In this document: positions 3,467 to 47,002 of the stretch, in pieces
Layout: every line of letters begins with the position of its first letter
Position numbering within the stretch: the first letter of the stretch is position 1
Source of the DNA: Acidobacteriota bacterium
GTDB taxonomy: Bacteria > Acidobacteriota > UBA6911 > RPQK01 > JAJDTT01
Direction: 5' to 3'
Length of the DNA stretch: 64,000 nucleotides
Assembly (NCBI GenBank): GCA_965209055.1
Contig: OZ242374.1
Coordinates: 3,232,001 to 3,296,000 of the forward strand
The notes under the pieces: model-generated
Databases searched by the model: none
The model's input: the letters and a program-made list of their open reading frames with translations, nothing else
What the model was told of the DNA's origin: nothing
Program-made: the position numbers and the translations under genes

Positions 3467-3503
3467 GGTAGAGAAGGGAATTATCCTTCTCCGCGAGTGT
3501 GTC
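3467..3503 (+). repeat. Palindromic site, family B (GGTAGAGAAGGGAATTATCCTTCTCCGCGAGTG)
   Basis: GAGAAGG...CCTTCTC inverted repeat; similar direct copy at 4037-4073. Confidence 0.6.
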
Positions 3504-3645
3504 GATTTGGTCTACCTGGACTCTTCTGTTTGGCTCGAACCAGGTTCACAGCGTTCCCTTCATGACTGGTACTTATACGGGGAATCTTCTTGCACACCGT
3601 TGTCTCTTTGGTAATACGCTCGACTATGCCTAGAGGAGAAGAGTG

Positions 3646-3999
3646 ATGTCAGATCCCAAGGAGTTTCGATTCGGAGGCTTCCTTATTTCGCTGCTGGCCT
3701 TCTTGGTTACGGTCGGCATCGCAATCTACGGGTTAGTCAAGGCTTTCAACGCCTTTTGCAAGTGGAACAAGCAGGATCGAATCCCGGAGAAATACAAAAA
3801 CTCTCAATCGGCACTCAAAGGAGACGATTTCTCAAATCCGTCCAAGCGGTTGACGGGGGGGCGTTGCGGCGCCACAGGCTTGTGGAGATCGAGTTGTCAG
3901 CACCGGGAGCAAAAGCTCATCCGCTCAGGAGAAACGTTTCCACTGTGTTGGCATTGCCGTCGGGGCGTGTATTGGAAATTGATTCGACCGGGCAAGTAG
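3646..3999 (+). CDS. Small membrane-anchored protein with C-terminal YjzC-like zinc ribbon
   Basis: AGGAG RBS, one TM helix, C-terminus TGGRCGATGLWRSSCQH...SGETFPLCWHCRRGVYWKLI; AT-richer than neighbours. Confidence 0.7.
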   Translation: MSDPKEFRFGGFLISLLAFLVTVGIAIYGLVKAFNAFCKWNKQDRIPEKYKNSQSALKGDDFSNPSKRLTGGRCGATGLWRSSCQHREQKLIRSGETFPLCWHCRRGVYWKLIRPGK

Positions 4000-4036
4000 G
4001 GAACCTCGATTGCCCACGTATACGGAGAGTGAGATC

Positions 4037-4073
4037 GGTAGAGAAGGTGACAGCCCTTTCGCCGCGTGCGCTC
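4037..4073 (+). repeat. Palindromic site, family B (GGTAGAGAAGGTGACAGCCCTTTCGCCGCGTGCG)
   Basis: Shares the GGTAGAGAAGG head and CCGCG tail with the 3467 site. Confidence 0.6.
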
Positions 4074-4226
4074 ATTAAAGTCTGGACCATCTGACTTCGA
4101 TGGTGAAGAATCATCCCGAATGTGGATGAGAAGGTCCTGCAATTGGCGGCATCGACCTCCATATTCCAAAGCGTCTGGGTTAATCTTCTTGCCCAGGATC
4201 CCTCGTTCAACATCTGGAGGCGTTTG

Positions 4227-5201
4227 ATGAACCGACTCGCCGTGCTGTCTTTATTCGCTGTGTCAACGGTCGTCGCCAGCGACCATCAACTGAAACCGGT
4301 CCGGATTGCCGTCCCGGTCGACGGGCACATTCACCCGGCGGCCTGCGTCACCCACTCGGGGACGATCGTCGTGACGTACGGGCGGGTGAATCACGTGGAC
4401 CTGCGCATCACTCGATCCTCGGACGGAGGAAGGACTTGGTCCGAACCGGTTCCGTTCGTCCATACCGTCGACAAGACCTATTACCCGGGCTCGCTGACGA
4501 CACTGAGCGACGGCCGCCTGGTGCATTGCTGGAACCGCTGGGATACGCCGGTCACTCAGAAGGAGCCACGGTCCGTCCTGTACTCGCTGTCAAGTGACGA
4601 AGGAGTCTCGTGGAGCGACCCGCAGCCGTTTCCGCGTGATCCCGAAGTCAGATCCGTCACGCGGCACCCCGTGACCGAACTGGAGTCAGGACAGTGGCTC
4701 GTTTCGTTGATCGACCGGACGTTCGTGTTTGATCCGGCCACTTCCAAGGCGACACCGTTCGGCGACGGCCGGGATCATGGGATGATCCCGATCGTGCAGA
4801 CACCTCAAGGCACGTTCGTCAGCGGCGCCGGCCTCCGATCGACGGACCACGGCACGACGTGGACAACCATCGAAGGCTTTCCGGACATCAGCACGCAGGG
4901 CTGGCGGCACGAAATGGTCGTTCTGAAAAACGGCTGGCTGCTGGCCTCGGAGATTCTCGGGCCGGGCTTTGGCGGGGAGCGCATCCGCTACCGCATCTCG
5001 TACGACGACGGGCAGACCTGGGATGGAGTATTCGAGTACTACAATCCTGGCCGCGCCATCAACGGCCGGGCCTGTCCCCGAACGGTGCAGCTCGACGACA
5101 AGACGATCGGCGTGGTCTTCTACGATATCGACAAGGATCAGGAGGGAGGACCGGGCGTGTTCTTCCTGCGAATCCCGATCGCGAAGCTGGCCGCCCGGTA
5201 G
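4227..5201 (+). CDS. Secreted BNR/Asp-box sialidase-like glycoside hydrolase
   Basis: GGAGG RBS before ATG 4227, signal peptide, Asp boxes SSDGGRTW, SSDEGVSW, STDHGTTW, SYDDGQTW. Confidence 0.85.
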   Translation: MNRLAVLSLFAVSTVVASDHQLKPVRIAVPVDGHIHPAACVTHSGTIVVTYGRVNHVDLRITRSSDGGRTWSEPVPFVHTVDKTYYPGSLTTLSDGRLVHCWNRWDTPVTQKEPRSVLYSLSSDEGVSWSDPQPFPRDPEVRSVTRHPVTELESGQWLVSLIDRTFVFDPATSKATPFGDGRDHGMIPIVQTPQGTFVSGAGLRSTDHGTTWTTIEGFPDISTQGWRHEMVVLKNGWLLASEILGPGFGGERIRYRISYDDGQTWDGVFEYYNPGRAINGRACPRTVQLDDKTIGVVFYDIDKDQEGGPGVFFLRIPIAKLAAR

Positions 5202-5232
5202 GAGGGGGGACAGTCTTGTCCCCCTCTTCACT
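5198..5232 (+). repeat. REP-like hairpin (GTAGGAGGGGGGACAGTCTTGTCCCCCTCTTCACT)
   Basis: Stem-loop at a gene end; related copies at 7668-7692 (internally deleted) and 8621-8654. Confidence 0.7.
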
Positions 5233-5341
5233 GGCGAGATAGGGAGAGACTACCTCTCTTCGTCTCGACTGTCCCTGCCGAGGGCCCATTCGCAGGTCTG
5301 ATCGTTGACTCGAGACTAGGTTTTCAATCTGGACATCCACT

Positions 5342-5734
5342 TCACACCGAGATGATGAGTAGACCATCCAATCGCTCAAAATGCCGACGATTGTTGGTGA
5401 GTAGCGTGAGCCCGTAATTTATGGCGGTGGCACCTATCATTAGATCGAAGTCGCTGATAAGGGTTCCCGTCGCCCTCAAACGACTCCGTTCCCTGGCGAA
5501 TGTGCGGCAAATATCTTCATCCAATGGCACGACATGAATCCGGTCAAGTACGTGCCACAGAGCTATTTCGGTTGCTTCCGGATCGTAGGAGCCGAATACG
5601 CCCTCGTTCAGTTCGGCGAGTGAGATAATGCTCAATCCGAGGCCGGCTGGTTCAAATTCCTGGAGACGGCTGATTACCTGAGCGCGGCCGTGCAGATGGT
5701 CGATGACCCAATCCGTGTCCACCAAATATCGCAC
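5342..5734 (-). CDS. vapC: VapC PIN-domain toxin
   Basis: From GTG 5734: RYLVDTDWVIDHL...SIISLAEL..G...DLMIGATA...LLTNNRRHFERLDGL, typical PIN motifs. Confidence 0.92.
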   Translation of the reverse strand: MRYLVDTDWVIDHLHGRAQVISRLQEFEPAGLGLSIISLAELNEGVFGSYDPEATEIALWHVLDRIHVVPLDEDICRTFARERSRLRATGTLISDFDLMIGATAINYGLTLLTNNRRHFERLDGLLIISV

Positions 5735-5738
5735 GGAA

Positions 5739-5975
5739 TTACAATTCCGGCTTTTGCCTGGAACCGGCAATCCGAGCTTCGTAGATCTTCCGCTTGAGCT
5801 GTTCCGGATCGTGCATTCCGATCCATCCGCCAGCCGAAGCGCCGAGCGAATTGATGGCGCTACCCGGGGATATGATCTCCCCTATGGACACGACTACTTC
5901 CTTGCCTTCTTCGAGGTCAAGGCTCTCTTGCGGAACGAACACACCCTTTGAATACTTCGCTTTGATCTTTCTCAT
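5739..5975 (-). CDS. DUF104/AF2212-like antitoxin
   Basis: MRKIKAKYSKGVFVPQESLDLEEGKEVVVSI, directly upstream of vapC. Confidence 0.85.
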   Translation of the reverse strand: MRKIKAKYSKGVFVPQESLDLEEGKEVVVSIGEIISPGSAINSLGASAGGWIGMHDPEQLKRKIYEARIAGSRQKPEL

Positions 5976-6124
5976 TGTTACCGGTCTTTTCCATAAGTCC
6001 TTGATTTGAGACGTCTTAGCAATCTCGGAGTCGGGGACTCTGAATCCACCGTCTGCCAAGACGATACCAGAACGCCGCCAGACACGCCGAATTCCGGGGA
6101 GCGGATGCCGACCCGGCACCTTCT

Positions 6125-6163
6125 TCGCACCAGTGGGAAAAGGCAACAGTCACCTTCTCCGCC
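6125..6163 (-). repeat. Palindromic site, family B (minus strand GGCGGAGAAGGTGACTGTTGCCTTTTCCC)
   Basis: Core AGAAGGTGACTG matches the 4037 and 43913 sites; lies between the vapBC module and the next gene. Confidence 0.5.
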
Positions 6164-6190
6164 ATTGCCGATTGCGAATTCCCGCACGGG

Positions 6191-7606
6191 TCAAGGTGGC
6201 GTGGCCGGATACACGAGTTCGCCGGCCTTGTAGACGGCGGCCAATAAGCGGGTGTTGCGGATGTCCGACAGTGGATCCGCCGTGAGCACGACCAGGTCGG
6301 CCAGCTTCCCGGCTTCGACGGTTCCGAGCTGATCCTCCAGACTCAGGCCCTCGGCGCCGTTTCGGGTCGCCATGACGATCACGTCGGTCTCGTCGATGCC
6401 CGCCTGGACCAGGAGCTCCAGTTCCCGATGCAGACTCACGCCCGGCGTTATCCAGGGCATTCCCACGTCGGTCCCTACAGTCAGCCTCACTCCCCCCTCG
6501 TGAAACATCCGCACGATCTGGAGTGCGACGGGGAATACGTCCTTGCCGGACGTGAAGGCCCGAAGGATTCCCATGGGGTTGGTGAAGACGAACGGGTTGC
6601 GATGCCGCCAGTCCGGACCCCATAGCGCCACGACCGAGGGCGGAGCCCGCTGAGGCTCGAGTCTCTCCAGAACCTTCGGATCGTCACCGAAACAGAGGCT
6701 CTCCATCACGACCAGGGTGGGGTCGACCGTCACGTCGTTGTCAACCAGGGCGGCGATCAGGGAGTTCATCAGCTCGCCGTCCAGCTCCACCAATTCAAGC
6801 CAACGGGCGTAGTATTCGGGGTAGGGCAGTGCCCTCAGTTGGGCCCGGTGCCTTTCGGGGACCAGCTCCCACGTCGGCCCTTCTCCGCCGCTGTGGACCA
6901 GGGAGTCGATTCCCAGCCGCGCCGCCTGGGTCCAGCTCGTTGCCCGGATGTGGCCGGCGACCTTCAGACCGAGCGCGTGAGCCTCCTCGATGGCGGCGGC
7001 CATCAGCTCCGGGGTCACGTCCCAGTACAACTTGACCATGTCGGCGCCCGCCGCAGCCTGTTGCCGAACCACGTCCCGCATCTCGTCCGGTGTCGCCACG
7101 GGCACCGTCCAGTCGAATCGGCTCGGAGACCCGTCGATGAAGGCGGCGCCGGTAATCATCCGCGGCCCGCGAACCCGCCCGGCCGCGATCTGGTCCCGGA
7201 GCTCGACGCCTGCGCTTTGCGCGGCGCCGGGGCTGCGTATCGTGGTCACTCCGAAATCGAGCAACGCCTCCACGGTCTCGATCCGAGCCTTGGGGTGAAC
7301 ATGGACATGCATATCGATGAATCCTGGAACCACATAGTGGCCCGAAACGTCTCGTCGCCGTGCCGAGTTGGAGAAACGGAAATCACCCGCGTTGCCGACC
7401 CTGAGGATTCGGTCGCCGGCCACCACGATGACGCTGTCCTCGCGCGGTTCGGAACCGGTGCCGTCAATCAGAGTGGCGCCCTCGAGAACAAGAAGCCCCT
7501 CGTCCACAAGCGCCTCAGCCGGTTCACCGCACGCAGCACCAGCCAGGACAAGTGCGAGGGCGATTGGAATAAGTGGACTGCTCAGCGATCCGGCTGCTGC
7601 TGACAT
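6191..7606 (-). CDS. Amidohydrolase family lipoprotein (imidazolonepropionase-like)
   Basis: PGFIDMHVH, GVTTIR, VGTD, GTVEAGKLADLVVL motifs; lipobox-like LAGAAC. Start uncertain (7606 or 7636). Confidence 0.88.
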   Translation of the reverse strand: MSAAAGSLSSPLIPIALALVLAGAACGEPAEALVDEGLLVLEGATLIDGTGSEPREDSVIVVAGDRILRVGNAGDFRFSNSARRRDVSGHYVVPGFIDMHVHVHPKARIETVEALLDFGVTTIRSPGAAQSAGVELRDQIAAGRVRGPRMITGAAFIDGSPSRFDWTVPVATPDEMRDVVRQQAAAGADMVKLYWDVTPELMAAAIEEAHALGLKVAGHIRATSWTQAARLGIDSLVHSGGEGPTWELVPERHRAQLRALPYPEYYARWLELVELDGELMNSLIAALVDNDVTVDPTLVVMESLCFGDDPKVLERLEPQRAPPSVVALWGPDWRHRNPFVFTNPMGILRAFTSGKDVFPVALQIVRMFHEGGVRLTVGTDVGMPWITPGVSLHRELELLVQAGIDETDVIVMATRNGAEGLSLEDQLGTVEAGKLADLVVLTADPLSDIRNTRLLAAVYKAGELVYPATPP

Positions 7607-7696
7607 CGACGGCCTACCGTGGCGGCATTGGATCACATTTTTTCCAAGATGGCCGGCGTACTTCCGTTAGGGGGGAACATCCCCTCTTCACTTGAG

Positions 7697-7730
7697 CCTC
7701 GCGGAGAAAGGGGTAGTCCAATTCTCCCGG
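7697..7730 (-). repeat. Palindromic site, family B-like (minus strand GGGAGAATTGGACTACCCCTTTCTCCGCGAGG)
   Basis: Similar direct copy at 8201-8232; CTCCGCGAG tail shared with the 3467 site. Confidence 0.5.
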
Positions 7731-7743
7731 CCAGACAAGGATC

Positions 7744-7786
7744 TTGACTCCGGGATACTCATCAATGGTAACATATAAGAATCCAT
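7744..7786 (+). promoter_or_regulatory. Putative TA promoter/operator (TTGACT; imperfect palindrome ATGGTAAC-ATATAA-GAATCCAT)
   Basis: AT-rich, -35-like hexamer and dyad immediately before GTGATGATAGAG. Confidence 0.4.
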
Positions 7787-7882
7787 ATAGTGATGATAGA
7801 GATCAGGGAGTCCCCGGTCTCCGAGGGGTCGTATTCAAAGTCGCTACCTCCTTGGTTCGTAACGACGGGAGACGTGAAAACC

Positions 7883-8200
7883 ATGCCATTGACACGAGAC
7901 TTCAAGGAAACGATTCAGGCGCGCATCAAAAGCGATCCGGTGTTCGGCGAAGAACTGCTCAAGGAAGGGATTGAGTGCTTCCTTTCGGGTGACGTGGATA
8001 CCGGGAAGGCGGTGCTACGCGATTACATCAACGCCACGATCGGCTTTCAGGCGCTTGGCGGATTGACTGAGAAATCTCCCAAGAGCCTGATGCGGATGTT
8101 CGGTCCCAAAGGCAACCCCCAAGCCCGAAACCTTTTCCGAATCATCGGTTTCCTCCAGAAACAGGAGGGGTTGCGCCTGAAGGTGGACGTGATTCGCTAG
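7883..8200 (+). CDS. HTH addiction-module antitoxin / transcriptional regulator (orphan)
   Basis: MPLTRDFKETIQARIKSDPVF...GKAVLRDYINATIGF...PKSLMRMFGPKGNPQARNLF, a family usually found downstream of RelE/HigB-type toxins. Confidence 0.85.
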   Translation: MPLTRDFKETIQARIKSDPVFGEELLKEGIECFLSGDVDTGKAVLRDYINATIGFQALGGLTEKSPKSLMRMFGPKGNPQARNLFRIIGFLQKQEGLRLKVDVIR

Positions 8201-8232
8201 CCGGGCCGGGAAAGGGACGGTCCACTTCTCCC
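8201..8232 (-). repeat. Palindromic site, family B-like (minus strand GGGAGAAGTGGACCGTCCCTTTCCCGG)
   Basis: Similar to the 7697-7730 site in the same orientation; begins right after the stop codon. Confidence 0.5.
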
Positions 8233-8249
8233 GTACCCGTGACGTCAGG

Positions 8250-8528
8250 CTACCTCTTGTCGGTCAGCCGGCCGGCCAGATATTTGTGGATAACACTCGA
8301 AAGCAGCGTCTGATAGGGGATCCCTTCCTCCCTGGCCCGCGAGTGAGCGAGCTAGAAGTCACGCTCCGTCATCCGCAGATTCACTCGCTTGGTCTTGTTG
8401 AACGTATCGCGAGCCGCCTGGCGGGCCACCTCAACCTCGCGTTCGGCGCCAGGAGCGGAGCGCAAGTCACCCCGCTCGAATCGGTCGAGAATGTCGCGCT
8501 CTTCGACGCTCAAATTGTCGCTCACCAT
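8250..8528 (-). pseudogene. CopG/RHH-type antitoxin interrupted by an in-frame TAG (8352-8354)
   Basis: Manual translation with AAGGAGG RBS: MVSDNLSVEERDILDRFERG...NKTKRVNLRMTERDF*LAHSRAREEGIPYQTLLSSVIHKYLAGRLTDKR*. Confidence 0.85.
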
Positions 8529-8620
8529 GGCTGCCTCCTTCGGTAAGCCCTCGTCGCCTTTCGGCTGGGAATACTCCTCTCCAGAAAACGAGCGCCGTCA
8601 GCCCGCGTCACAAAATACAA
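8522..8620 (-). pseudogene. 3-prime remnant of a BrnT-like toxin
   Basis: LYFVTRADGARFLERSIPSRKATRAY resembles the FLKTIIPSRKATR C-terminus of such toxins; overlaps the antitoxin start and is cut off by the REP at 8621. Confidence 0.6.
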
Positions 8621-8654
8621 TAGGAGGGCGGACATTCCTGTCCCCCTCTTCACT
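8621..8654 (+). repeat. REP-like hairpin (TAGGAGGGCGGACATTCCTGTCCCCCTCTTCACT)
   Basis: Similar to 5198-5232. Confidence 0.7.
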
Positions 8655-8731
8655 TGTATACTCGACCGCACAGTTGAGCCGGGCGCCAACTTCGGCGCCC
8701 GCCGCACCGTCACGCAACCGAGGGGAAATCC

Positions 8732-9730
8732 ATGCTCAAATTCGGATTGTTCGGAGCCGGCAGGATCGGCCGCATGCGTGCAAGAATCCTCGCGGCAAAC
8801 CACCGTGTGGAACTGGCGGGGATCTACGATGTCGATGCTGACGCCGTCGCCTCCGCCGCAACCGAGACCAGATCCGTTTCTGTCGACTCCGTCGACGCCC
8901 TGCTCGGAGACCCGACCCTCGACGCCGTTTGCATCTCCTCCTCCACCAGCACCCACTGCGACCTGATCGAAGGCGCCGCGCGGACCGGCAAGGCGGTGTT
9001 CTGCGAAAAACCGATCCACCTGGAAATGGAGCGGGCCGACGCCTGCGGGGCGGTTCTGGCCGAGACCGGCGTACCTTTTCAGATCGGTTTCAACCGGCGC
9101 TTCGACCCCAACCACGGTGAGGTGCAACGGGCTGCCCGCAATGGCGAGATCGGCCGTCTGGAGCAGGCCGTCATCAGCAGCCGGGATCCATACCCGCCGC
9201 CCCTGCGTTTTCTTCGGGGTTCCGGGGGAATATTCCGGGACATGATGGTCCACGACTTCGACATGGCCCGCTTCCTGTTCAATGAGGAGCCCGTGGAGGT
9301 CACGGCCATGGGCAGCGTGCTCTTCGATACGCGTTGCGAGGAATTCGGCGACGCGGACAGCGCCATGGTCGTGCTGCGGATGGCCTCGGGCGCTCTCTGC
9401 CACGTCAACTGTTCGCGCCACTGCTCGTTTGGCTACGACCAGCGGATCGAGCTGTTTGGAGAAGGTGGCATGCTGGTCTCCGCCAATCCGGCCCGGACCA
9501 GCATCGAACGCTACACGGAAAGTGGGACCTCCGCCCGCGACCGGCTGCACCCCTTCTTCATCGAGCGGTACGAAGAAGCGTTCACGCGGGAGATCGACGC
9601 CTTCGTGGATGCCGTGGAACAAGGCGTCAAGCCGTCACCCGGCTTCGATGACGGGAGGCGCGCCCTGCGAGTTGCCGACGCGGCGGAAGAATCAGCCAGG
9701 AGCGGCCGGACCGTCCGGGTGGGCGACTGA
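8732..9730 (+). CDS. iolG: myo-inositol 2-dehydrogenase (Gfo/Idh/MocA family)
   Basis: GAGRIG, CEKP, GFNRRFDP, SRDP, SGGIFRDMMVHDFD, GYDQRIE, FFIERY motifs. Confidence 0.88.
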   Translation: MLKFGLFGAGRIGRMRARILAANHRVELAGIYDVDADAVASAATETRSVSVDSVDALLGDPTLDAVCISSSTSTHCDLIEGAARTGKAVFCEKPIHLEMERADACGAVLAETGVPFQIGFNRRFDPNHGEVQRAARNGEIGRLEQAVISSRDPYPPPLRFLRGSGGIFRDMMVHDFDMARFLFNEEPVEVTAMGSVLFDTRCEEFGDADSAMVVLRMASGALCHVNCSRHCSFGYDQRIELFGEGGMLVSANPARTSIERYTESGTSARDRLHPFFIERYEEAFTREIDAFVDAVEQGVKPSPGFDDGRRALRVADAAEESARSGRTVRVGD

Positions 9731-9755
9731 GCCCGCGTCCGGGTGTTTCCAACTG

Positions 9756-9941
9756 TCAGCAGGCCTTGAACAACAAGACAACCAGACCACCGACAACGAG
9801 CCCGACGAGAGTGACCAGGAGTTTGAGTACCTCGATGGCAACGAGCCCAAGAACCGCGCCCACGGTGACATTCGTAACGAGTCGAGTGTCGAGTTGGGAC
9901 GTAAACCAAGTCCAGATTCGCTTGATTTTCCTTTTCTTCAT
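9756..9941 (-). CDS. Small hypothetical membrane protein
   Basis: 61 aa, basic N-terminus then hydrophobic; co-oriented directly downstream of the cytochrome genes. Confidence 0.5.
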   Translation of the reverse strand: MKKRKIKRIWTWFTSQLDTRLVTNVTVGAVLGLVAIEVLKLLVTLVGLVVGGLVVLLFKAC

Positions 9942-9953
9942 TTCTTGGCGGCG

Positions 9954-10166
9954 TCACTCCTTCCGTGTCGCGACGGACCAGAGGTAGAGAACCATCCCCG
10001 TTCCGACCAGTCCCGCTCCCAACGTCAGGAACAGGAACAGGGAAACCGGATGGTTCCAGAACAGCGTGCCCAACTCCACCGCAATCCCGGCCGCGATCAG
10101 CAATCCGGCAAGTTGCAGGCGGCCCGCGAATCCCGTCCGAAAACCCAGCGACCGAATCCAGCTCAC
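9954..10166 (-). CDS. Small two-TM membrane protein
   Basis: GTG start overlaps the upstream TGA (GTGA); two hydrophobic helices. Confidence 0.7.
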   Translation of the reverse strand: MSWIRSLGFRTGFAGRLQLAGLLIAAGIAVELGTLFWNHPVSLFLFLTLGAGLVGTGMVLYLWSVATRKE

Positions 10167-10780
10167 GGCTTCGCCTCCGGGTCCCAACGCCCGAACCGGT
10201 CCAGCTTCGTGACCTCGTGAATCAGGTTGTGGCACATGAGGCACGACTTGGTCCCGGAGATCAGATCGGATCGAAATCGCAGGTGTGCCGGGAATTCCTC
10301 GAAGGACCTGGCTCCTTGGTGGCATTCCAGGCAGGCCCGGTTCTCATACGGCTCGTAGAGCTTCACCGGGTCGGACCACGAGCCCAAGACGCTGTGCCAG
10401 ACATGTCTCACGCCGCGGATCTTGTCGTCCACGTCTCCGAACATGGTGTAGCTCGTGTGGCAGGTGTAGCAGGCCTTGTCGGCGGGGATGAGCTTGTTCT
10501 GGAAGTGAGCGGCGGGAAGGAACCGGGGATGGTCGATGAGCAGGCTCTCCCCGTAGGGCTCGATAGCGTGGCAGGAGAGGCAGAAGTCGGTCGTCTTGGC
10601 CTGCTCGTAGTGCCGGTCGGCGCCGCCCAGGATCAGGAGCCCCGGCATTGCGAAGAGGGCGACGAACGCGAGTATCCTGCCCCCGACGGCGTCGGTCCAT
10701 TCGGGCCGGCGGGCGAATGCCGCGATCAAGGCGATGGTTGCGAGTCCCGACAGGCTCAGGAGGATGACGTCGCCAGTCAC
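10163..10780 (-). CDS. NapC/NirT-family membrane tetraheme cytochrome c
   Basis: Two TM helices, TTDFCLSCH, CYTCH, CLECH, CLMCH; GTG start coupled to the upstream stop. Confidence 0.88.
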   Translation of the reverse strand: MTGDVILLSLSGLATIALIAAFARRPEWTDAVGGRILAFVALFAMPGLLILGGADRHYEQAKTTDFCLSCHAIEPYGESLLIDHPRFLPAAHFQNKLIPADKACYTCHTSYTMFGDVDDKIRGVRHVWHSVLGSWSDPVKLYEPYENRACLECHQGARSFEEFPAHLRFRSDLISGTKSCLMCHNLIHEVTKLDRFGRWDPEAKP

Positions 10781-12129
10781 TCGATTGGGGTCCTCACGGT
10801 CGGATGATGTTTGCCGCGCAGCTCCTGCGCCAACGTCCTGATCTCGGTCAGATCCTGCAGCATCTCGCTCCACCCGTACCAGAGCGCGTAATCCGGATTG
10901 TTATGAAACGTTCCCTGAAACGCGCGCATCCGGTGTTCCAGGTGCATCTTGAAGAGGCGCTGCTCGATGGTCGAGGGGGCGTCGTGGAAAGCCAGCAGGT
11001 CGGGGAAGTCGTAGGCATAGTGGTCCGGCTTGCTCAGGATGCCGTCACGGTAGAGGGAGGCGATGATGCGGATCGCCTCCGCCAGCAGCCGGTCGGTCTC
11101 ACGAATCATCTCATCGCCCTTCTCCAGTTCCGCTCGCACCAGATTCGACGAGTGGCATTGCTCGCAGATCTGGATCATCCGGTCGCGCTCTTTCTGCCAG
11201 TCCTCCTGGGTCAGCCGGGCGACGTCGGCCTGCTTCACCACCTCCAGCCGGGGAGTCGGGTTGCCCTGCGGGTCCAGGACGCCGAGGGCCTGGAGGATGG
11301 TGGCGCGATCGGCCGCCCACTCCGGGTCCTCCGGCATGGGGAGGCGCACGGCCAGGAATCCCCACGCCGTCCTCACCCCATGATCCCCCTTGGGCATGTG
11401 GCACGTCTGGCAGGTGGGGGCCGACGCCTGTTCCGGCAGGGTTCCGGTCTGCTTGAGCATGTGCCGGACGCCGTGTTTGGACGAGGAGTACATCTCCCAC
11501 TGAGGATGGTCGATTCCCATGTGGCAGGTCCGGCAGGCCTGGGGTTCCCGGGCCTCCTTGACCGAAAAGAGGTGCCGCGTGTGGCAGGTGTCACACGACG
11601 CCAGTCCGAACATAACGCCGTCCGCCTTCAGTTGCCGGATCTCTTCCTCGCTCTTGAGCCCGACGCGATGGCAGCCGCCGCAGCCCTTCATCCCTTCGGT
11701 CAGGGCCATGGGGAGCCAATGCGTCGTGGGCATGGCGTTCATGCTGGCCCAGGCCAGGGCGTGCTTGCCCCCTTGGAACTGCTCCGTCTGAATCGGATGG
11801 CAGGTGGCGCAGACATCGGGAGTCGCCGTCTTCACCAGCGCCACGTCCTCCGCCGTCCGATGTTCCTCGCCATGGCAGAGGGAACAGTCCACCCCCGCGG
11901 GGTTGTGACGGCTCAACTCCCAGTCCGTGACGATGCCGGGAGTCACCTCGCGGTGGCACTCGACGCAGTCCGAGGAGGCCTGTTTCACGTCGCGGTCGCC
12001 GCATGAAACCAGGCCCAGAACGGCCAAAGGCAGGAAAAAGAAGGCGCGGCGCAGTCCACCGGTCCCGGTCCGGTCGCGGAGCAACGGCCGTTGGGAGTCG
12101 AACAGCTCTCGAACGCAGAGTCCTGACAC
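10777..12129 (-). CDS. Octaheme cytochrome c, hydroxylamine oxidoreductase (HAO) family
   Basis: Eight CxxCH motifs (CVECH, CSLCH, CATCH, CGGCH, CDTCH, CRTCH, CQTCH, CEQCH), CHTRHLFS..EAR.P.AC..CHMG.DHPQWE.Y..SKHG signature, lipobox LVSC. Confidence 0.88.
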   Translation of the reverse strand: MSGLCVRELFDSQRPLLRDRTGTGGLRRAFFFLPLAVLGLVSCGDRDVKQASSDCVECHREVTPGIVTDWELSRHNPAGVDCSLCHGEEHRTAEDVALVKTATPDVCATCHPIQTEQFQGGKHALAWASMNAMPTTHWLPMALTEGMKGCGGCHRVGLKSEEEIRQLKADGVMFGLASCDTCHTRHLFSVKEAREPQACRTCHMGIDHPQWEMYSSSKHGVRHMLKQTGTLPEQASAPTCQTCHMPKGDHGVRTAWGFLAVRLPMPEDPEWAADRATILQALGVLDPQGNPTPRLEVVKQADVARLTQEDWQKERDRMIQICEQCHSSNLVRAELEKGDEMIRETDRLLAEAIRIIASLYRDGILSKPDHYAYDFPDLLAFHDAPSTIEQRLFKMHLEHRMRAFQGTFHNNPDYALWYGWSEMLQDLTEIRTLAQELRGKHHPTVRTPIE

Positions 12130-12254: not shown

Positions 12255-12524
12255 ATGACCGTGAAAAAGACCGTCAGCTTTACGGATCGCCACCATCGGT
12301 ACCTGTCGGAGAAGGTGGACCAGGGCATGTTTGCCACTCGGAATGCAGTGGCGGCGGCGGCCATCGAACAGATGATGCAGGAAGAGGCCGAGCGAAACGT
12401 GGCAATTTCGGCTTCGGCCGAAGAAATCCGCATGCGTATGCGGACGCCAGTTTCCGAGTATGTGGACCAGGATCACGTTTTCTCAGCCGCTCGCACTCCG
12501 ATTGGGATTGACCCGAAGACGTGA
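12255..12524 (+). CDS. ParD-like RHH antitoxin (orphan)
   Basis: AAGGAGG RBS; MTVKKTVSFTDRHHRYLSEKVDQGMFATRNAVAAAAIEQM; no toxin downstream. Confidence 0.7.
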   Translation: MTVKKTVSFTDRHHRYLSEKVDQGMFATRNAVAAAAIEQMMQEEAERNVAISASAEEIRMRMRTPVSEYVDQDHVFSAARTPIGIDPKT

Positions 12525-12560
12525 CTGTCCCCTTCCGAACAGGTGCTGTCCTTCCCCCGG

Positions 12561-16756: not shown

Positions 16757-16843
16757 TCGGAACCGACGGAATCGGTAATCTGCACTGCCATTGCTCTTGC
16801 TGCGCCGTAGGCGTCAGCGGCGACAACGATAACACGACCGTCA

Positions 16844-17404
16844 GGAGCGGCGGTTTCCTAACCGCCGAACTCCGGTGTAGCAAAGTGGCGACGGAAGAAC
16901 GGGCGATTAGAAATCGCCCTTCCTGGAGCGGCGGTTTCCTAACCGCCGAACTCCGGTGTGACAACTTGGCGACGAAGACTGGGCGATTGGAAATCGCCCT
17001 TCCTGGAGCGGCGGTTTCCTAACCGCCGAACTCCGGTGTGACAACCTGGCGACGAAGACTGGGCGATTGGAAATCGCCCTTCCTGGAGCGGCGGTTTCCC
17101 AACCGCCGAACTCCGGTGTGACAACCTGGCGACGAAGACCGGGCGATTAGAAATCGCCCTTCCTGGAGCGGCGGTTTCCCAACCGCCGAACTCCGGTGTG
17201 ACAACCTGGCGACGAAGACCGGGCGATTGGAAATCGCCCTTCCTGGAGCGGCGGTTTCCTAACCGCCGAACACCGGTGTAGCAAAGTGGCGACGAAGACC
17301 GGGCGATTGGAAATCGCCCTTCCTGGGGCGGCGGTTTCCTAACCGCCGAACTCCGGTGTGGCAACTTGGCGACGAAGACCGGGCGATTGGAGATCGCCCC
17401 TCCT
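16844..17404. repeat. Tandem array of 7 units of about 80 bp, each with two inverted REP-like hairpins (BIME/REPIN-like)
   Basis: Units start at 16844, 16925, 17005, 17085, 17165, 17245, 17325; GGAGCGGCGGTTTCCTAACCGCC and GGGCGATTGGAAATCGCCCTTCC joined by near-constant linkers. Confidence 0.95.
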
Positions 17405-17405
17405 G

Positions 17406-36653: not shown

Positions 36654-36654
36654 C

Positions 36655-38200: not shown

Positions 38201-38659
38201 ATGCCGGGTGTTACAATCAAGGTAGCACCGCAAAATCATTCGATGGAGATGACATACATTTCAGCGCCCCCCAGGGTGTTCCTCAGTTTCTCCATGGAGC
38301 ACAAGCCGCTCGTCGATCTGTTTCGAGATCAGGCGCAAAACGGCCATTCAGGTGTGGTTTTTCGTGACTACTCCATCAAGGAACCCGTGGAAGGTGCGTG
38401 GAAAATTCATGCGGAGCGTCTCATTCGAGCGTCAAGTGCGACGATCTGTTTGATCGGCGAGAGCACCTGGCGTAGCGAGCCGGTGAACTGGGAGGTTCGA
38501 AGGAGTGCGGAACTTGGCAGACGGGTTTTGGCGGTCTACCTGCAGTCAAATGCCGCAAGGTCTCCGGCGGCGCTCGTGGAAATCGGTGTAACACCGATGC
38601 CTTGGGATATCAGGACGATAGTGGCGCAACTGTCCGATGAACAACGACAAGTCAGTTGA
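38201..38659 (+). CDS. TIR-domain protein (ThsB/MTH538/DUF1863-like)
   Basis: RVFLSFS...FRDYSIKEP...IRASSATICLIGESTWRSEPVNWEVRRSAELGRRVLAV, with the conserved WE glutamate; start could be 38243 or 38249. Confidence 0.85.
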   Translation: MPGVTIKVAPQNHSMEMTYISAPPRVFLSFSMEHKPLVDLFRDQAQNGHSGVVFRDYSIKEPVEGAWKIHAERLIRASSATICLIGESTWRSEPVNWEVRRSAELGRRVLAVYLQSNAARSPAALVEIGVTPMPWDIRTIVAQLSDEQRQVS

Positions 38660-39209
38660 TGATGAGTTGTTTCGTCATGGCGAACCCACGCCAGACGACG
38701 CGGAAGCGTTGCTGACACAGTATCGATTGTTCGTCGAGACGTCTGAAGCGCTTTCCGCGCGGCGTCAAGGTGTAAACACGTTCTTCCTCTCCGTAAATTC
38801 CATTGTTCTTGCAGCCGCCGGTTTGCTCCTACGCGATGAGAAATTCAGCGACCTGGAGGCCATCGCGCTGATCTGTCTGAGTTTCGGCGGCGCTGTGCTG
38901 AGTTTCGTCTGGTGGCGATTAATTTCTTCCTTCCAACAACTGAGCAAAGGCAAATTCGCCGTGATTCACGCGCTAGAACGGCGATTGCCTGCTCGAATAT
39001 TCGCTGCGGAGTGGGTTGCCCTCGGGTGCGGAAAGGATCCGAAGAAGTACAGGCCATTCACCGTAACAGAAAAGACAAAGAAACCGATTCTTGGCGTAAA
39101 CCCATGGGGGCAACAGAGAGTCTCACGCATCGTGGCGAGTGCTGCGGACAGGTTGGTCGGTTGGCAGAGGAAGAGTGTCGTTGGCGGGATCTGGAAACTT
39201 TACCGGTGA
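38637..39209 (+). CDS. Small TM protein (RipA/8xMP-like) fused to the C-terminal tail of a second TIR domain
   Basis: LLTQYRLFVETSEALSARRQGVNTFFLSVNS, two TM helices, W..LISSFQQLSKGKFAVIHALERRLP...EW..LG.GKDPKKYRPFT, then KPILGVNPWGQQRVSRIVASAADRLVGWQRKSVVGGI. Confidence 0.75.
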   Translation: MNNDKSVDDELFRHGEPTPDDAEALLTQYRLFVETSEALSARRQGVNTFFLSVNSIVLAAAGLLLRDEKFSDLEAIALICLSFGGAVLSFVWWRLISSFQQLSKGKFAVIHALERRLPARIFAAEWVALGCGKDPKKYRPFTVTEKTKKPILGVNPWGQQRVSRIVASAADRLVGWQRKSVVGGIWKLYR

Positions 39210-41400: not shown

Positions 41401-42372
41401 ATGAAGAAGCCCGCCGGCGAGCAGGCCGCCAAGGGACATGGCAGGAGTATCGAGCACTTGGCGGACGGAGCCGTCGACGAAGGCCGCTACGAAAAGGGGA
41501 AGAGGCACGGGAAATGGGTGCTGCGGAGTGCGAACGGGGATATTGAAGAAGGCCCATATGTGGAGGGAAAACGGCACGGGCAGTGGGTTGAACACCACGC
41601 GAACGGGGAGGTCCACGAAGGCCCCTATGTCGACGGTGAGCTGCACGGGCCGTGGGTCCTGCGCTTAACCGACGGCACCGTCGGCCATGGCACCTTTGTG
41701 GAAGGGAGCGAGCCTGGACAATGGGTTTTTCGCGCCGCGGACGGCGCTGTTTGCAAAGGTCCCATAGTAGAGGGCAAGCAGCACGGACAGTGGGTGCTGC
41801 GTCATGCGAATGGGGATGTCGACGAAGGTCCCTTCGTAGAGGGGAAGCCGCATGGACATTGGGTGCTGCGCCATGCGAACGGGGATGTCCACGAAGGCCC
41901 CTACGTAGACGGGAATCCCCACGGACAGTGGATTCGACGTCAGGCCGACGGGGATGTCTACGAAGGCCCCATGGTGGAGGGGAAGGAACATGGACGGTGG
42001 GTTGTACGTTTTGCGAACGGGGATATCCACGAAGGTCCCTTTGTGGAGGGGACGCCCCACGGAAAGTGGGTTATTCGTCCGGCGGACGGATCCGTCCACG
42101 AAGGTCCCATGGTGCAGGGGGAACTGCACGGACAGTGGATTGCCCGCCTTAAGGATGGGGACGTCTACAAGGTCCGCTTCGAGGAGGGAAGGCAGCGCGG
42201 AGATCCGGTTCCTCAAGGCGGCGAAAAGGCCGGCGCCAAGGTCATCAACTGGGCGGTCGAGAGGCCCTTCACCTTCGGTTTGGCCTTGGTGGCAATTTGG
42301 AAACTTGGGCCGCCTGTATTGGCTGTCATCCTCTTATTGGTCCTCGTTTTCCTGCTGAATTTGAGCTCCTGA
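41401..42372 (+). CDS. MORN-like repeat protein with C-terminal membrane anchor
   Basis: About 11 tandem 23-aa repeats like HGQWVLRHANGDVHEGPYVEGKx; hydrophobic C-terminus. Confidence 0.85.
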   Translation: MKKPAGEQAAKGHGRSIEHLADGAVDEGRYEKGKRHGKWVLRSANGDIEEGPYVEGKRHGQWVEHHANGEVHEGPYVDGELHGPWVLRLTDGTVGHGTFVEGSEPGQWVFRAADGAVCKGPIVEGKQHGQWVLRHANGDVDEGPFVEGKPHGHWVLRHANGDVHEGPYVDGNPHGQWIRRQADGDVYEGPMVEGKEHGRWVVRFANGDIHEGPFVEGTPHGKWVIRPADGSVHEGPMVQGELHGQWIARLKDGDVYKVRFEEGRQRGDPVPQGGEKAGAKVINWAVERPFTFGLALVAIWKLGPPVLAVILLLVLVFLLNLSS

Positions 42373-42427
42373 TGAGGGGCTGTATCTCTCACCTGATTAG
42401 GTTCCGCACGTGAAGCGAGGTGCGGCG

Positions 42428-43786: not shown

Positions 43787-43793
43787 GCGGAGC

Positions 43794-43845
43794 GGAGCGG
43801 CGGTCTCTGGCCGCCGACTGGGAACGGCGGTTTCCAGCCGCCGGT
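43794..43845 (+). repeat. Two REP-like hairpins (GGAGCGGCGGTCTCTGGCCGCC; GGAACGGCGGTTTCCAGCCGCC)
   Basis: Stem-loops after the stop codon; relatives at 41165-41189 and 47850-47908. Confidence 0.7.
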
Positions 43846-43909
43846 TCTTACGATCCCGGGCCGCCGGAAATCCCACCAACTCAGGCCGTATCGGCCTTCC
43901 GGCGAATCC

Positions 43910-43948
43910 GAAGTAGAAGGGGACAGTCACCTTCTACTGTGCGGCGTG
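43910..43948 (+). repeat. Palindromic site, family B (GAAGTAGAAGGGGACAGTCACCTTCTACTGTGCGGCGTG)
   Basis: Near-identical direct copy at 46964-47002. Confidence 0.8.
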
Positions 43949-44101
43949 CTGTACTGGATCCTGATCCCGGCCTTGCTCCCAGGTTCCGGCGCCCGCCGGT
44001 CCCAGGTCACCGATCAGTTGACAGGGCAATGGTCTTTTTCTTAGTTTGTACTACAAACTGGTTTGCACCTTAATTTCGGCCCGAAGAGAAAGGACGTCGC
44101 C

Positions 44102-44839
44102 ATGAAAACTGCGGACCCCGACGAACAGTTTCCCAGCAACTCGATCAAAGAGATTCCCAAGTGGACTCGTCGCTACGTTCAGAATCGGACTGTCCCCTTC
44201 TTGCTCACCCTGTCCCTGTTTCTGGTTTGGAGCTATTTGGCCGGCACAGGGTCGAAGCTTGCCAGGGAGGCGTTTAGAGCGGGAAACATGACCGAATTCT
44301 ATTTTGCGATGACAGTTGTCGTCGCGATGGTTGCTCTGCTCGTCTGGTCCTTCGTGCCAGGGTGGGGCTGGGGGTGGATGAAGAGGCTCACCAATAGAAT
44401 CCAAAAGGAGAGTGGCGATGCGGCCCTTCCGGTCCCGGCAGACCAGAAGAACCCCAACTGGCGCCGACAGCTGCTACCCGGCGTCTTCATGTTGGGAGTT
44501 CCGATCTCGGTGGTGCTGACACGAATGGGCTACCTTCCGCATGAGTATGTGCAGCCGGTATCGGCTCTCTATGCCGTGCCATTCCTGATCGCCACCTTCA
44601 TTACGATGCGCTCGATCATGAGTCCGGTTTACCTCCTGTGGCCGATTCTCTACGGAACGCACGCCATCCTGGTGGTGGCAGGAGCCCCGATACAGTTCGA
44701 AGGGCAATGGGAATCTCTGAATATGCTGATTCCGACTATTGGATACGGCCTCCTGACCGGAGTGGTGGGATTTCTATTCGGCCAGTACTCTCTGACGAGG
44801 TTGCGGGATATCGCATCCGGAGGAGTGGCGAAACCATGA
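44102..44839 (+). CDS. Hypothetical multi-pass membrane protein
   Basis: AAGGA RBS, about six TM segments, ATGA overlap with the downstream regulator. Confidence 0.75.
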   Translation: MKTADPDEQFPSNSIKEIPKWTRRYVQNRTVPFLLTLSLFLVWSYLAGTGSKLAREAFRAGNMTEFYFAMTVVVAMVALLVWSFVPGWGWGWMKRLTNRIQKESGDAALPVPADQKNPNWRRQLLPGVFMLGVPISVVLTRMGYLPHEYVQPVSALYAVPFLIATFITMRSIMSPVYLLWPILYGTHAILVVAGAPIQFEGQWESLNMLIPTIGYGLLTGVVGFLFGQYSLTRLRDIASGGVAKP

Positions 44840-45144
44840 CGAGCGGGCTCGACCGGGTTGTCCACGAGCCGGCCCGGCTCCGCATCCTGATGCTGCTATC
44901 TGCGGTCGAGGAGACCGATTTCAAGTTCTTGCAATCGACTCTGGGCCTGACCAACGGCAACCTGTCGTCTCACATGAATCGCTTGGAAAAGGCTGGTTAC
45001 GTGAAGATTCTGAAGGGGTTTGTCGGAAAGGTAACCCAGACGCGGTACCACCTGACCAGAGCGGGGAAACGGGCTCTCGACAGCTACTGGAAGCAGATTG
45101 ACGAGATTCGCTCACTCTCAGTTCAAGTGAGTGGATCGCTGTGA
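44836..45144 (+). CDS. Winged-helix transcriptional regulator (MarR/ArsR-like)
   Basis: LDRVVHEPARLRILMLL...DFKFLQSTLGLTNGNLSSHMNRLEKAGYV. Confidence 0.9.
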   Translation: MTSGLDRVVHEPARLRILMLLSAVEETDFKFLQSTLGLTNGNLSSHMNRLEKAGYVKILKGFVGKVTQTRYHLTRAGKRALDSYWKQIDEIRSLSVQVSGSL

Positions 45145-45332
45145 TTCGGCCAGAAGCAATCCCTCTGCATCACTGAATACTGTAGAAGATCAACCGAATT
45201 GGACGCTGGCGACTTCATCTTCACGACGTTGCCCGGTGTGCCGGTTCGCCGTTGATCTACCGGGAAATGCTGGAGACGCCGATAAATTGAGAGAGTCCAT
45301 CGGTTTCCCGGAGGAACATCACAAGTAGGGAC

Positions 45333-45575
45333 ATGATCTGGAACCTGATTCCCATTGGAGCCTTCCTTTGCTTGGCCGTCGTCATCCGAGGCCAGATCCG
45401 GCGCCAGAAACAGATGGAGTTGGGCTTGGGCGTCAGAATCACCAGCCTGGAGACGCAGGTCGGAGATCTACAGGATCGCGTCAACCGGATCGAGGACACG
45501 TCGTCCGTTTCCAAGGAGTCCTTCGGAAGAAACGTTCCCGATCTCCCTGCAATTCCTGAAGACGTCGTATCGTAG
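45333..45575 (+). CDS. Small hypothetical protein (TM plus coiled coil)
   Basis: Hydrophobic N-terminus followed by ITSLETQVGDLQDRVNRIE. Confidence 0.5.
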   Translation: MIWNLIPIGAFLCLAVVIRGQIRRQKQMELGLGVRITSLETQVGDLQDRVNRIEDTSSVSKESFGRNVPDLPAIPEDVVS

Positions 45576-45606
45576 CCGTCAGCGATCCACGAATTCGCCG
45601 CCAGGG

Positions 45607-45855
45607 GAGCGGACGCCCAATCGACTCCCACAAACCACTGACTTGGTTTCATCTCGACCTCCGAGTGCCTAAAATGGGTTTGGGCCGCCGCGATCCGGGC
45701 CGAATCCTGTACTGGCATTCGTGGATGCAAACTTCCCACGGGGCCTCCATCGCGGCAACCGGCCGGGGCACGGGTCCGCTCCAGGTGGCCTGAAGGCACT
45801 GCGGTTTTTTGGTAGCTCCCGGCCGGTTGGCCCTCTTCACCCACTATGGGTGAAG
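45607..45855 (-). mobile_element. IS110-family remnant: about 200-bp non-coding end plus first about 15 codons of the transposase
   Basis: GGAGG RBS, ATG 45652 MKPSQWFVGVDWASA (IS110 N-terminal FVGxDW motif), then loss of similarity; structured upstream region. Confidence 0.55.
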
Positions 45856-45883
45856 TCCCTTAAAGGTTACTCGGGAAGGGTAC

Positions 45884-45987
45884 AGGCGGTTTCCTAACCG
45901 CCGAACTGGAGCGGCGATTTCCAATCGCCGAACTCCTGACTGAAAAACTTGGCGACGAAGACTGGGCGATTGGAAATCGCCCCCCCT
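45884..45987. repeat. Single REP/BIME-like unit related to the 80-bp array
   Basis: GGCGGTTTCCTAACCGCCGAAC, GGAGCGGCGATTTCCAATCGCC, TTGGCGACGAAGACTGGGCGATTGGAAATCGCCC. Confidence 0.85.
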
Positions 45988-46129
45988 TTTTCTTAGAGGG
46001 GGCGTGACGATCACGCATGATTTTCGCCCTCAGCGCGTGCTCGCGACCGATAGAGCAGCGGTAACTACGTTTGAGCGGGTATGTGCGTGCTGAGGGGGAG
46101 AAGCCCAGCGAGCGCGCTCCCAGCACAGT

Positions 46130-46355
46130 CCGTCATGGAGAAATCTTTGCCAGAGCATCATGACCCCAAGAACTCCAGCAACGACAGCCGGCAGAAAATC
46201 AAAGGTATAGGCTGCGTAAGGGATCAGCGTCGGGACGGGCGTAACGAATCCATTGGCGATATTGGCATTGAAACCGAACGTGCGGCGATGCGTATAGGAC
46301 CCGTCGATCAGGGAATAGGTTGCCCAGACATCGGCCCTGCGGGTCGGGGACCAAA
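46130..46355 (-). pseudogene. Diverged internal fragment of a homologue of the 47033-47767 gene
   Basis: VWSPTRRADVWATYSLIDGSYTHRRTFGFNANIANGFVTPVPTLIPYAAYTFDFLPAVVAGVLGVMMLWQ aligns without gaps to the intact gene; both ends missing. Confidence 0.85.
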
Positions 46356-46405
46356 CCCCTCTCCACGGCTCCTTGGTGGACCGGAACTCGCCCGCCGCCT
46401 CGTCG

Positions 46406-46831
46406 CTATTGGCCCAGCCACCGCCGCTTGCGAGCCAGAGCACGTCGTTTGCAAGACCAGATCAAGTCAACAACGTCGAGAGCTTCAATGTCTGAATCAA
46501 ACCGCACGGTTTCGTTTCCCTTGATGCGGACCGTATACCGTCTCCCTGCTCTGTCACGGAACAAATAACCGAAATCGACAAGATGGCGTCGTAACGAGAC
46601 CCGGTCCAAGGACGCGTCCAGGCCGATTGAGGCAACCCACTCTCGAAGCGAACCGTTCAATTCTCGTTCTGAGTACGGGCTCCTGCTCTCAAGCGTTTGA
46701 GCGATGGCGCGAAACAAGATGTGACGATCACGCTGCTTCCGTGGCAGCATCATCAAACGCCCGCCACATATGGCGGATAGCCTCGCCTCGAATTCGCGTC
46801 GATCGACTGGGTGCTGCTCTCCATTCCCCAT
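46406..46831 (-). CDS. DUF2087-like protein
   Basis: LPRKQRDRHILF...YSERELN..L...DRVSLRRHLVDFGYLFRDRAGRRY. Confidence 0.8.
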   Translation of the reverse strand: MGNGEQHPVDRREFEARLSAICGGRLMMLPRKQRDRHILFRAIAQTLESRSPYSERELNGSLREWVASIGLDASLDRVSLRRHLVDFGYLFRDRAGRRYTVRIKGNETVRFDSDIEALDVVDLIWSCKRRALARKRRWLGQ

Positions 46832-46866
46832 AGTTCGTGCTGGCCGACGAATATGAACGAGATCTG

Positions 46867-47002
46867 GTAGAAGGGGACTGTCACCTTCTCCTGAGGCCGG
46901 AAGTATGAGGCCGGAAGTAGAAGGGGACTGTCACCTTCTCCTGAGGCCGGAAGTATGAGGCCGGAAGTAGAAGGGGACAGTCACCTTTTCTTGTGCGGCG
47001 TG
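46867..47002 (+). repeat. Three family B palindromic sites at 50-bp period
   Basis: GTAGAAGGGGAC(T/A)GTCACCTT at 46867, 46917, 46967, joined by CTGAGGCCGGAAGTATGAGGCCGGAA. Confidence 0.9.

Follow-up and report, generated by a model that had tools for sequence, protein, structure and literature searches.

The DNA considered here, referred to as the window, is a 64,000-nucleotide stretch of an Acidobacteriota bacterium (contig OZ242374.1, positions 3,232,001 to 3,296,000) that has a GC content of 64%, contains TonB receptor, DUF1501/PSD1 and oxidoreductase genes, and carries at least three families of short palindromic repeats. The subject of this report is one of these, family B, which is a real repeat family. 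Its copies keep a single orientation at any one locus, lie where local duplications, local deletions and inserted accessory DNA are joined to their surroundings, and stay preferentially with the DNA on their 3′ side. The unit is a ~25-bp asymmetric palindrome with 3–12 variable bases on each side, and it occurs as two variants, B1 (the commoner) and B2. Its oriented consensus is GAGAAGGGGACAGTCACCTTCTC, with the left arm more conserved than the right; every position of the arm GGGGACAG is 92–97% conserved among the sites used to train the scoring matrix.

This weight matrix was trained solely on genomes other than that of the window and was applied to the 64-kb sequence with loop gaps permitted. 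It returned 18 matches of at least 14 bits (two strands counted), compared with 0.08 in 12 Markov controls, and at 10 bits the chance rate is ~1.1 matches per window. Nine intergenic or junction sites stand clearly above chance (4037, 6134, 7703, 8207, 12512, 43913, 46867, 46917 and 46967); a tenth match at ~44180 (19.3 bits) lies within coding sequence, and two sites, 3467 and 5235, are borderline. An earlier, sequence-only reading of the window had listed hairpins at the borders of small accessory genes, and its sites at 4037, 6134, 7703, 8207, 12512, 43913 and 46967 are recovered by the matrix, those at 3467 and 5235 only at the borderline level; the candidates at 39233, 41300 and 42374, which it had itself allowed might be chance, each score less than 1 bit and were rejected. 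The sites at 46867 and 46917, which form a 50-bp tandem, were absent from its list. The shared orientation that it described is seen within each clear pair and breaks down between pairs, the 4037 site being opposite to 6134, 7703, 8207, 43913 and 46967, and its consensus merges both orientations because the pairs differ in strand. The GTAG foot by which it had tied the hairpins to known transposase substrates is not conserved, the diagnostic base occurring in 13% of the training sites; membership of the GTAG class of repetitive extragenic palindromes (REPs) was rejected on this count, and the motif instead matches the TIRYT repeats discussed below.

The sites and the genes beside them are listed here, L022 being a segment of a related genome that is orthologous to window positions 1007–11201 at ~86–94% identity.

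3467..3492, minus strand: degenerate family B site, 11.1 bits, borderline; homology to the L022 backbone stops at ~3465
3643..3999, plus strand: small low-GC accessory open reading frame (ORF) with a Cys/His-rich tail, absent from L022; no Pfam or NCBIfam match
4037..4063, minus strand: family B site with a 2-nt loop deletion, 23.6 bits; orthologous to the L022 site at 11255
5235..5262, plus strand: weak possible site, 10.5 bits, adjoining a family C repeat; may be chance
5342..5980 (right limit approximate), minus strand: vapBC, a PIN toxin and an AF2212-like antitoxin (Pfam); absent here in L022
6134..6162, plus strand: family B site bounding the vapBC insert on the right, 29.0 bits; backbone homology restarts at 6183
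7703..7729, plus strand: family B site of the B2 variant (nearest to the form that flanks Y1 transposase genes in relatives), 15.6 bits; common to L022 at 15063
7790..8200, plus strand: toxin–antitoxin (TA) remnant, with a RelE/ParE-type toxin mostly deleted and the antitoxin (7883–8200) intact, by alignment with L022
8205..8233, plus strand: family B site of the B2 variant (the 8207 site), 19.3 bits; L022 homology extends as far as the antitoxin stop codon that immediately precedes it
8262..8528, minus strand: small antitoxin-like pseudogene with an in-frame stop (from its translation), on the 3′ side of the 8207 site; absent in L022
12255..12524, plus strand: orphan ParD-like antitoxin ORF (from sequence), its stop codon inside the 12512 site and no partner toxin after it
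12512..12538, minus strand: family B site, 22.7 bits
43787..43910, no strand: left copy of a target duplication (family A repeat and Nramp 3′ end) ending directly at a site; 81% identical to 47850–47939
43913..43939, plus strand: family B site opening an accessory block, 29.6 bits, hairpin z = −3.0; 39 bp with 3 mismatches relative to the 46964 copy
44063..46831, no strand: cargo of the accessory block, comprising a membrane protein, an HTH_34 regulator, an 80-aa gene, the fragment 46118–46402 and DUF2087
46867..46991, plus strand: three family B sites at a 50-bp period (46867, 46917 and 46967), 28.1, 28.1 and 36.5 bits
47810..47939, no strand: right copy of the target duplication, probably the true right limit of the block (alignment)

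The strand of the 3467 site was taken from an 11-bp flank common to the 4037 site, and both of its strands score alike. The label of 8262..8528, whose first 58 amino acids have no Pfam or NCBIfam match, and that of 12255..12524, which has no database match and was already called ParD-like in the sequence-only reading, are our presumptions.

Comparison with L022 places several of these sites at the limits of shared sequence. Between the equivalents of 3467 and 4037, L022 contains higBA and a vapB fragment with another site, not the Cys-rich ORF, and the sequence common to the two genomes begins, in the alignment, at the 4037 site and extends rightwards. At the position of vapBC, L022 has neither vapBC nor a B site but does have a family A repeat. 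Both genomes contain the 7703 site with its TA cargo, the L022 counterpart of the truncated toxin matching TIGR02683, and L022 also has a 276-bp internal fragment of the gene at window 15289–15564 placed against a B site. The orthologous L022 locus thus breaks at the window's own sites. In the block at 44–47 kb, since 43787–43910 duplicates 47810–47939, the insertion spans the 43913 site to ~47848; it is one-sided, with a long target duplication, and reaches past the 46964 site. It opens at the 43910 site, as had been proposed, but is not simply bracketed by the site at 46964. Within its cargo, the 80-aa gene recurs in relatives, where it adjoins B sites at a locus unlinked to this one, and 46118–46402 is an 83%-identical fragment of the gene at 47033.

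A genome scan with the motif yielded at least 80 stretches, of which 47 come from seven Acidobacteriota genomes and were merged into 34 segments (688 kb); the 33 loci from elsewhere were used for a count of doublets only. The segments were selected by the motif, were taken as windows of 20 kb, and represent 14 orthology groups when the window is counted. They contain 159 sites of at least 14 bits, a count that is partly circular because the matrix was trained on them. The sites fall into 155 clusters (142 single, 3 inverted and 10 direct), 13 of which lie within long predicted ORFs, and in 99 of 112 pairs of neighbours the two clusters have the same strand. Of the 115 comparable clusters, 78 have the end of an inter-genome alignment within 45 bp, as do 74 of 192 intergenic midpoints without a site (Fisher p 7e-7), and alignments span 12 of the 115 clusters intact versus 96 of the 192 control midpoints. 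Among 68 local duplications, retained after 14 dispersed repeats had been dropped, 32 end within 45 bp of a site, whereas permutation gave a mean of 5.4 and a maximum of 14 in 2000 trials. Thus the sites are not distributed like ordinary intergenic REPs or terminators but lie, in same-strand arrays, at presence/absence breakpoints of related genomes, which bears out the proposal of the sequence-only reading that they are recombination junctions. A reading as terminators or RNA elements was rejected, there being no Rfam match in the window at gathering thresholds and the gene orientation around the sites being free.

The joints show a polarity. At 30 sites a shared segment starts at the 5′ edge and runs 3′, against 7 in the mirror class, and within single genomes the corresponding figures are 6 events and 0. 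Replication-strand bias was rejected as the source of the shared orientation, the site strand agreeing with a (weak) local codon-skew proxy in 15 of 30 loci; it agrees with the majority gene strand in 16 of 34. An assembly artefact is unlikely, as the duplicates are 79–100% diverged and recur at orthologous loci of several genomes. In loci from other taxa, 10 of the 33 show the motif as inward-facing doublets 30–60 bp apart (L001, L002, L025, L033, L041, L052, L055, L063, L072 and L080), which is consistent with the 5′ edge of the site being the end of an element; the Acidobacteriota clade instead has direct singlets almost throughout. When the comparison is made with site-free partners, 23 of 30 joints on the 5′ side lie 16–25 bp from the site centre and 26 of 34 on the 3′ side lie 10–24 bp from it, some rows in each set being redundant, and the joints scatter over ~10–15 nt on either side of the site. 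The 3′-side joints begin with CT in 7 of 34 cases and with TG in 9 of 34, again with some redundancy; characterised TnpA-REPs cleave at CT or CA. Short scrambled tandem repeats with units of 5–45 bp stand directly beside B sites and the ends of Y1 genes (L066 4500–4590 and 9900–10060; L067 11490; L062 11490; L020 10020; L075 4540–4610), and suggest repeated error-prone joining.

The matrix-defined sites neighbour TA and defence genes, at whose borders the sequence-only reading had proposed to test for enrichment. Among the ORFs within 900 bp of a site, 212 of 246 were scanned (34 apparent duplicates, orthologues and already scanned genes being omitted), and 33 match TA-type families (HigB, HigA-like HTH_3, ParE, PIN, FitA, HicA, MazE, Gp49, HTH_37, DUF433 and TraY-like) and 6 match defence-type families (Mrr, GmrSD, DUF2357 with PDDEXK_7, and AAA_21); farther from sites, 4 TA-type matches were found among 223 of 226 cluster representatives, a ratio that is only approximate because thresholds and de-duplication differ between the two sets. 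Local genes are also copied: L007, L061 and L067 contain internal copies, 417–1039 bp long and 92–98% identical, of backbone genes 3–10 kb away, and these copies abut a site at one or both ends while the source copies have none. TA toxins near B sites are often deleted, interrupted or stop-bearing, with intact antitoxins (window 7790–7880 and 12524; L009 13150–13240; L022 10640 and 15205). Near-identical (97–98%) IS605-type tnpB elements occur in two genomes (L035 1857–3032; L049 13619–14794; L056 6921–8096), and a B site lies no more than ~350 bp from two of these three elements.

No recombinase was found among the window genes, in agreement with the sequence-only reading. That reading had suggested a search for a Y1 gene flanked by the motif, and relatives do have a Y1/HUH gene with variants of the motif on both sides. 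Y1 genes were detected by motif search in L066, L070 and L075 and confirmed with PF01797; the locus is orthologous in the three genomes, adjoins an epimerase gene ~4–5 kb from the scan match, and is inverted in L070. In each case the gene is flanked by inward-facing GGG(G)ACAGTC ends, the right-hand ones with GGG, not GGGG. These ends resemble the B2 sites at window 7703 and 8207, and no bases are conserved 5′ of position −3. The Y1 ends and the B sites have the core GGGACAGTC in common, which agrees with the TIRYT consensus. The protein has 311–313 aa, with the motifs NHFH/NHYH and YVELN, and H65, H67 and Y164 are invariant among 68 aligned sequences. The family gave 312 matches, with up to three clusters on one contig (85–89% identity), and close relatives map to six of the seven site-rich genomes; the best relatives in a plasmid collection are mostly Alteromonadales-type proteins at 25–33% identity. 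A sequence search against the PDB returned nothing; fold searches with the predicted structure (pLDDT 87.5) matched E. coli TnpA-REP (4ER8, Z 16.2, rmsd 2.8 over 161 residues), Rep domains giving Z 5.7 or less. The NCBIfam RAYT model NF047646 gives 53 and 49 bits, below its cut-off of 80. As regards the C-terminal HTH or Bac_DnaA_C-like domain that marks TIRYTs of subclass 2.1, no Pfam match other than Y1_Tnp was found at E 0.1, and the residues after 229 are barely covered by the fold search. A second, unrelated RAYT-like Y1 gene occurs at L017 18878–19546 (NF047646, 73 bits) and is a possible partner of the family A or C repeats.

These other two families also occur in the window. Family A, which looks like an ordinary REP cluster, is found at 16843–17405, 41165, 43816, 45885, 47849 and 57727–57832 and includes a seven-copy array with an 80-bp period. 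Family C lies at 5201, 7667, 8623 (a copy common to L022) and 45830, twice immediately before a family B site (5235 and 7703). At 38201–39209, a ThsB-like TIR gene is followed by an 8xMP membrane gene in a low-GC, likely defence, pair, beside which the matrix gives no credible B site. The MORN-like gene at 41401–42372 has at least nine internal 69-bp repeats, and the B-like matches that flank it score as chance. A 166-bp element with inverted ends, resembling a miniature inverted-repeat transposable element, adjoins a parDE-type pair at 54678–54843, and copies of 91–97% identity occur at several loci of relatives, one of them beside an L022 B site.

The explanation that we consider probable is that family B is a non-autonomous mini-element which is joined to free DNA ends by a trans-acting Y1 transposase of the TIRYT/subclass 2.3 type encoded elsewhere in the chromosome. 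The nick that Y1 would make in single-stranded DNA would lie a few bases to the 5′ side of the GGGGACAG arm, with the enzyme remaining covalently bound there, and a free 3′-OH, provided by a nascent strand, a break or another nick, would resolve this link and so join arbitrary DNA to the site; the other joint would arise through host repair or through a further cleavage next to the weaker arm. Such chemistry has precedents, in that TnpA-REP forms a 5′-phosphotyrosine that is resolved by an added 3′-OH oligonucleotide and cleaves on either side of its hairpin (PMC8266576). Capture of the Y1-linked end by a free 3′-OH would account for the absence of a target motif, for the length of the target duplications and for the copying of fragments. 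Over repeated rounds, units made of a site and its cargo could accumulate head to tail, parts of nearby genes could be copied, and TA and defence genes could become trapped in scattered patches. Together, the joints suggest rough cut-and-join gene gain rather than a precise cassette system. The foreign genes at the sites may have been captured actively or may simply be tolerated there. A stronger version, in which Y1 and the 25-bp repeat form a dedicated gene-acquisition system, is possible but doubtful; such a system would attach the repeat to single-stranded DNA of local or incoming origin and so assemble polar TA/defence arrays at many loci.

Several observations weigh against the explanation by a trans-acting Y1. 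The counts drawn from 14 orthology groups and from motif-selected segments are not independent. Joints against site-free partners number 34 on the 3′ side and 30 on the 5′ side, and because the former are as common as the latter the polarity is only partial. No conserved junction dinucleotide occurs in these 30 and 34 joints, and no conserved target. Many sites, including one that flanks Y1, fold no better than shuffled sequences. The Y1 loci of L066, L070 and L075, being orthologous, amount to one observation, and the form that flanks them, GACAGTCTATTTT, is closer to B2 than to the commoner B1. Y1 and the B sites are a candidate enzyme–substrate pair.

The same observations bear on the alternatives. 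In one of them, which seems unlikely, the repeat is a passive marker that Y1 merely spreads, as RAYTs spread REPs, while its hairpin stalls forks or supplies microhomology, host repair makes the rearrangements, and purifying selection lets these persist in accessory DNA only. The imprecision of the joints, their flanking scrambled tandem repeats and their lack of a target motif would fit this, as would the GC content beside the sites, which is equally low at 0.59 on one side and 0.59 on the other; family A repeats were uninformative as a control, with 17 matches, 4 comparable clusters and 3 of these with an alignment end nearby, a sample too small for the comparison. Yet the hairpins are weak, a near-symmetric stalling structure would not be expected to keep one orientation per locus, and the copies within genomes that start at the 5′ edge have no mirror counterpart. 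Sites also stand at both ends of fragments whose source has none, and in L009 a ~75-nt double site takes the place of 9 bp inside higB.

The model advanced by the sequence-only reading, a dispersed integron-like system in which cassettes between direct sites are excised and integrated precisely, site by site, fares less well and is improbable. It would explain the direct-repeat arrays, a TA-rich cargo like that of integrons, and a 697-bp site-led unit that is present three times in L009, and single-site alleles do occur opposite multi-site filled ones (L003:10010 versus L048 and L078; L076:495 and 5955 versus L029), as that reading had anticipated. However, empty alleles without any site exist as well (L015; the vapBC locus in L022), site-led segments begin at offsets anywhere between −4 and −26 with no fixed crossover point, flanking genes are found in every orientation (classes of 43/27/32/36), cargo is often a gene fragment, and one methyltransferase gene adjoins a site with one end at one locus and with its other end at a second, unlinked locus. 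The notion of precise cassettes within paired sites is not supported. Least probable of all is a genuine junction role served by a different and unseen enzyme, either another Y1 family or a tyrosine recombinase: the B1 form does differ from the Y1-flanking form, L017 encodes an unrelated RAYT-like protein, and the data consist of 20-kb windows only, but the core shared by B sites and Y1 ends fits the TIRYT consensus, and as regards tyrosine recombinases, there is no IntI in the window, and the 435 ORFs scanned include just two integrases, of phage type, each lying over 4 kb from the nearest site.

In integrons and CALINs, short imperfect palindromes on one strand alternate in arrays with small accessory genes and with TA and defence genes. 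The direct-orientation arrays of family B (99 of 112 on the same strand) resemble them, and differ in that no IntI was found with the sites in the window or among the scanned ORFs, in having no attC boxes, fixed crossover or fixed gene orientation, in their often fragmentary cargo, and in their occurrence at many loci. A non-autonomous IS200/IS605 composite would have distinct left and right ends with a conserved tetranucleotide cleavage or target site, and this does not agree with the lack of conserved bases 5′ of position −3 or of a conserved dinucleotide in the 30 and 34 joints. The closest relatives appear in the published account of TIRtrons, in which a Y1 gene lies between inward-facing inverted repeats carrying GGGGWSAS, and of TIRYT repeats, which are dispersed as singles, dimers and clusters, are in some cases self-complementary, and have Acidobacteria among their hosts (Di Nocera, 2013; PMC3733652). 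The Y1 genes between inward-facing repeats in L066, L070 and L075, the GGGGWSAS motif and the dispersed repeats all match; the role at rearrangement joints, the same-strand arrays and the cargo set family B apart from TIRYTs as that article describes them, and here nearly all repeats are direct singlets. The protein, by motif only, resembles subclass 2.3 of TnpA-Y1, the points of resemblance being a length of ~311–325 aa, the signatures NH[YF]H and Y[VI][DE]LN, the HUH-W insertion, the long tail and a number of diverged copies in each genome. The classification of Quentin (2018; PMC6006769) reports no REP-like structure or substrate for subclasses 2.1 and 2.3.

With REP/REPIN–RAYT systems as presented in PMC5581495 and PMC8266576, family B has in common the 4ER8 fold, a trans-acting enzyme and short dispersed extragenic palindromes, and it differs in that the GTAG foot is not conserved, that just 3 of the 155 clusters are inverted doublets, that the enzyme falls below the RAYT cut-off, and that the sites lie at breakpoints with cargo. 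A preprint on the REPIN mobilome (10.1101/2024.07.17.603846), whose scope does not extend to family B, describes no circles for E. coli REP regions. One-ended transposition of IS91/ISCR elements and capture by Helitrons, in the description of PMC4778049, offer a partial parallel in HUH chemistry, in the capture of adjacent fragments and perhaps in having one defined and one loose end, for which the site-led copies within genomes (6 versus 0) would speak and the joints on both sides would not; the enzyme there is a Rep or Rep-helicase rather than a small TnpA-type Y1, and family B further differs in its ~35–45-nt mobile unit and in having joints on both sides. Copies of the insertion sequences IS5 and IS481 have been placed at the centre of duplications and deletions (Ngan, 2024; PMC11708052), likewise elements at the joint of a large rearrangement that were perhaps inserted into existing breaks, although they are full elements, unlike the minimal repeat that is used many times per locus in this clade. 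No account of such repeats as capture joints was found in the open-access literature, a search that covered published text and not sequence listings of terminal inverted repeats or REPs; it is fairly well supported that family B is a junction element of a known kind of repeat and enzyme, whose behaviour at junctions and in capture was not found described.

For the host role of domesticated Y1/RAYT-like transposases, family B and its putative partner provide a candidate enzyme–substrate pair with a visible genomic outcome, namely the copying of gene fragments and the build-up of TA and defence genes at marked joints. If this explanation is true, arbitrary DNA can give rise to cassette-like arrays, and accessory and defence genes in these genomes could be located by means of the motif. 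Should the more doubtful reading as a dedicated gene-acquisition system prove true, it would constitute a functional analogue of the integron that dispenses with pre-made cassettes, and would give the orphan transposases of subclasses 2.1 and 2.3 their first role.

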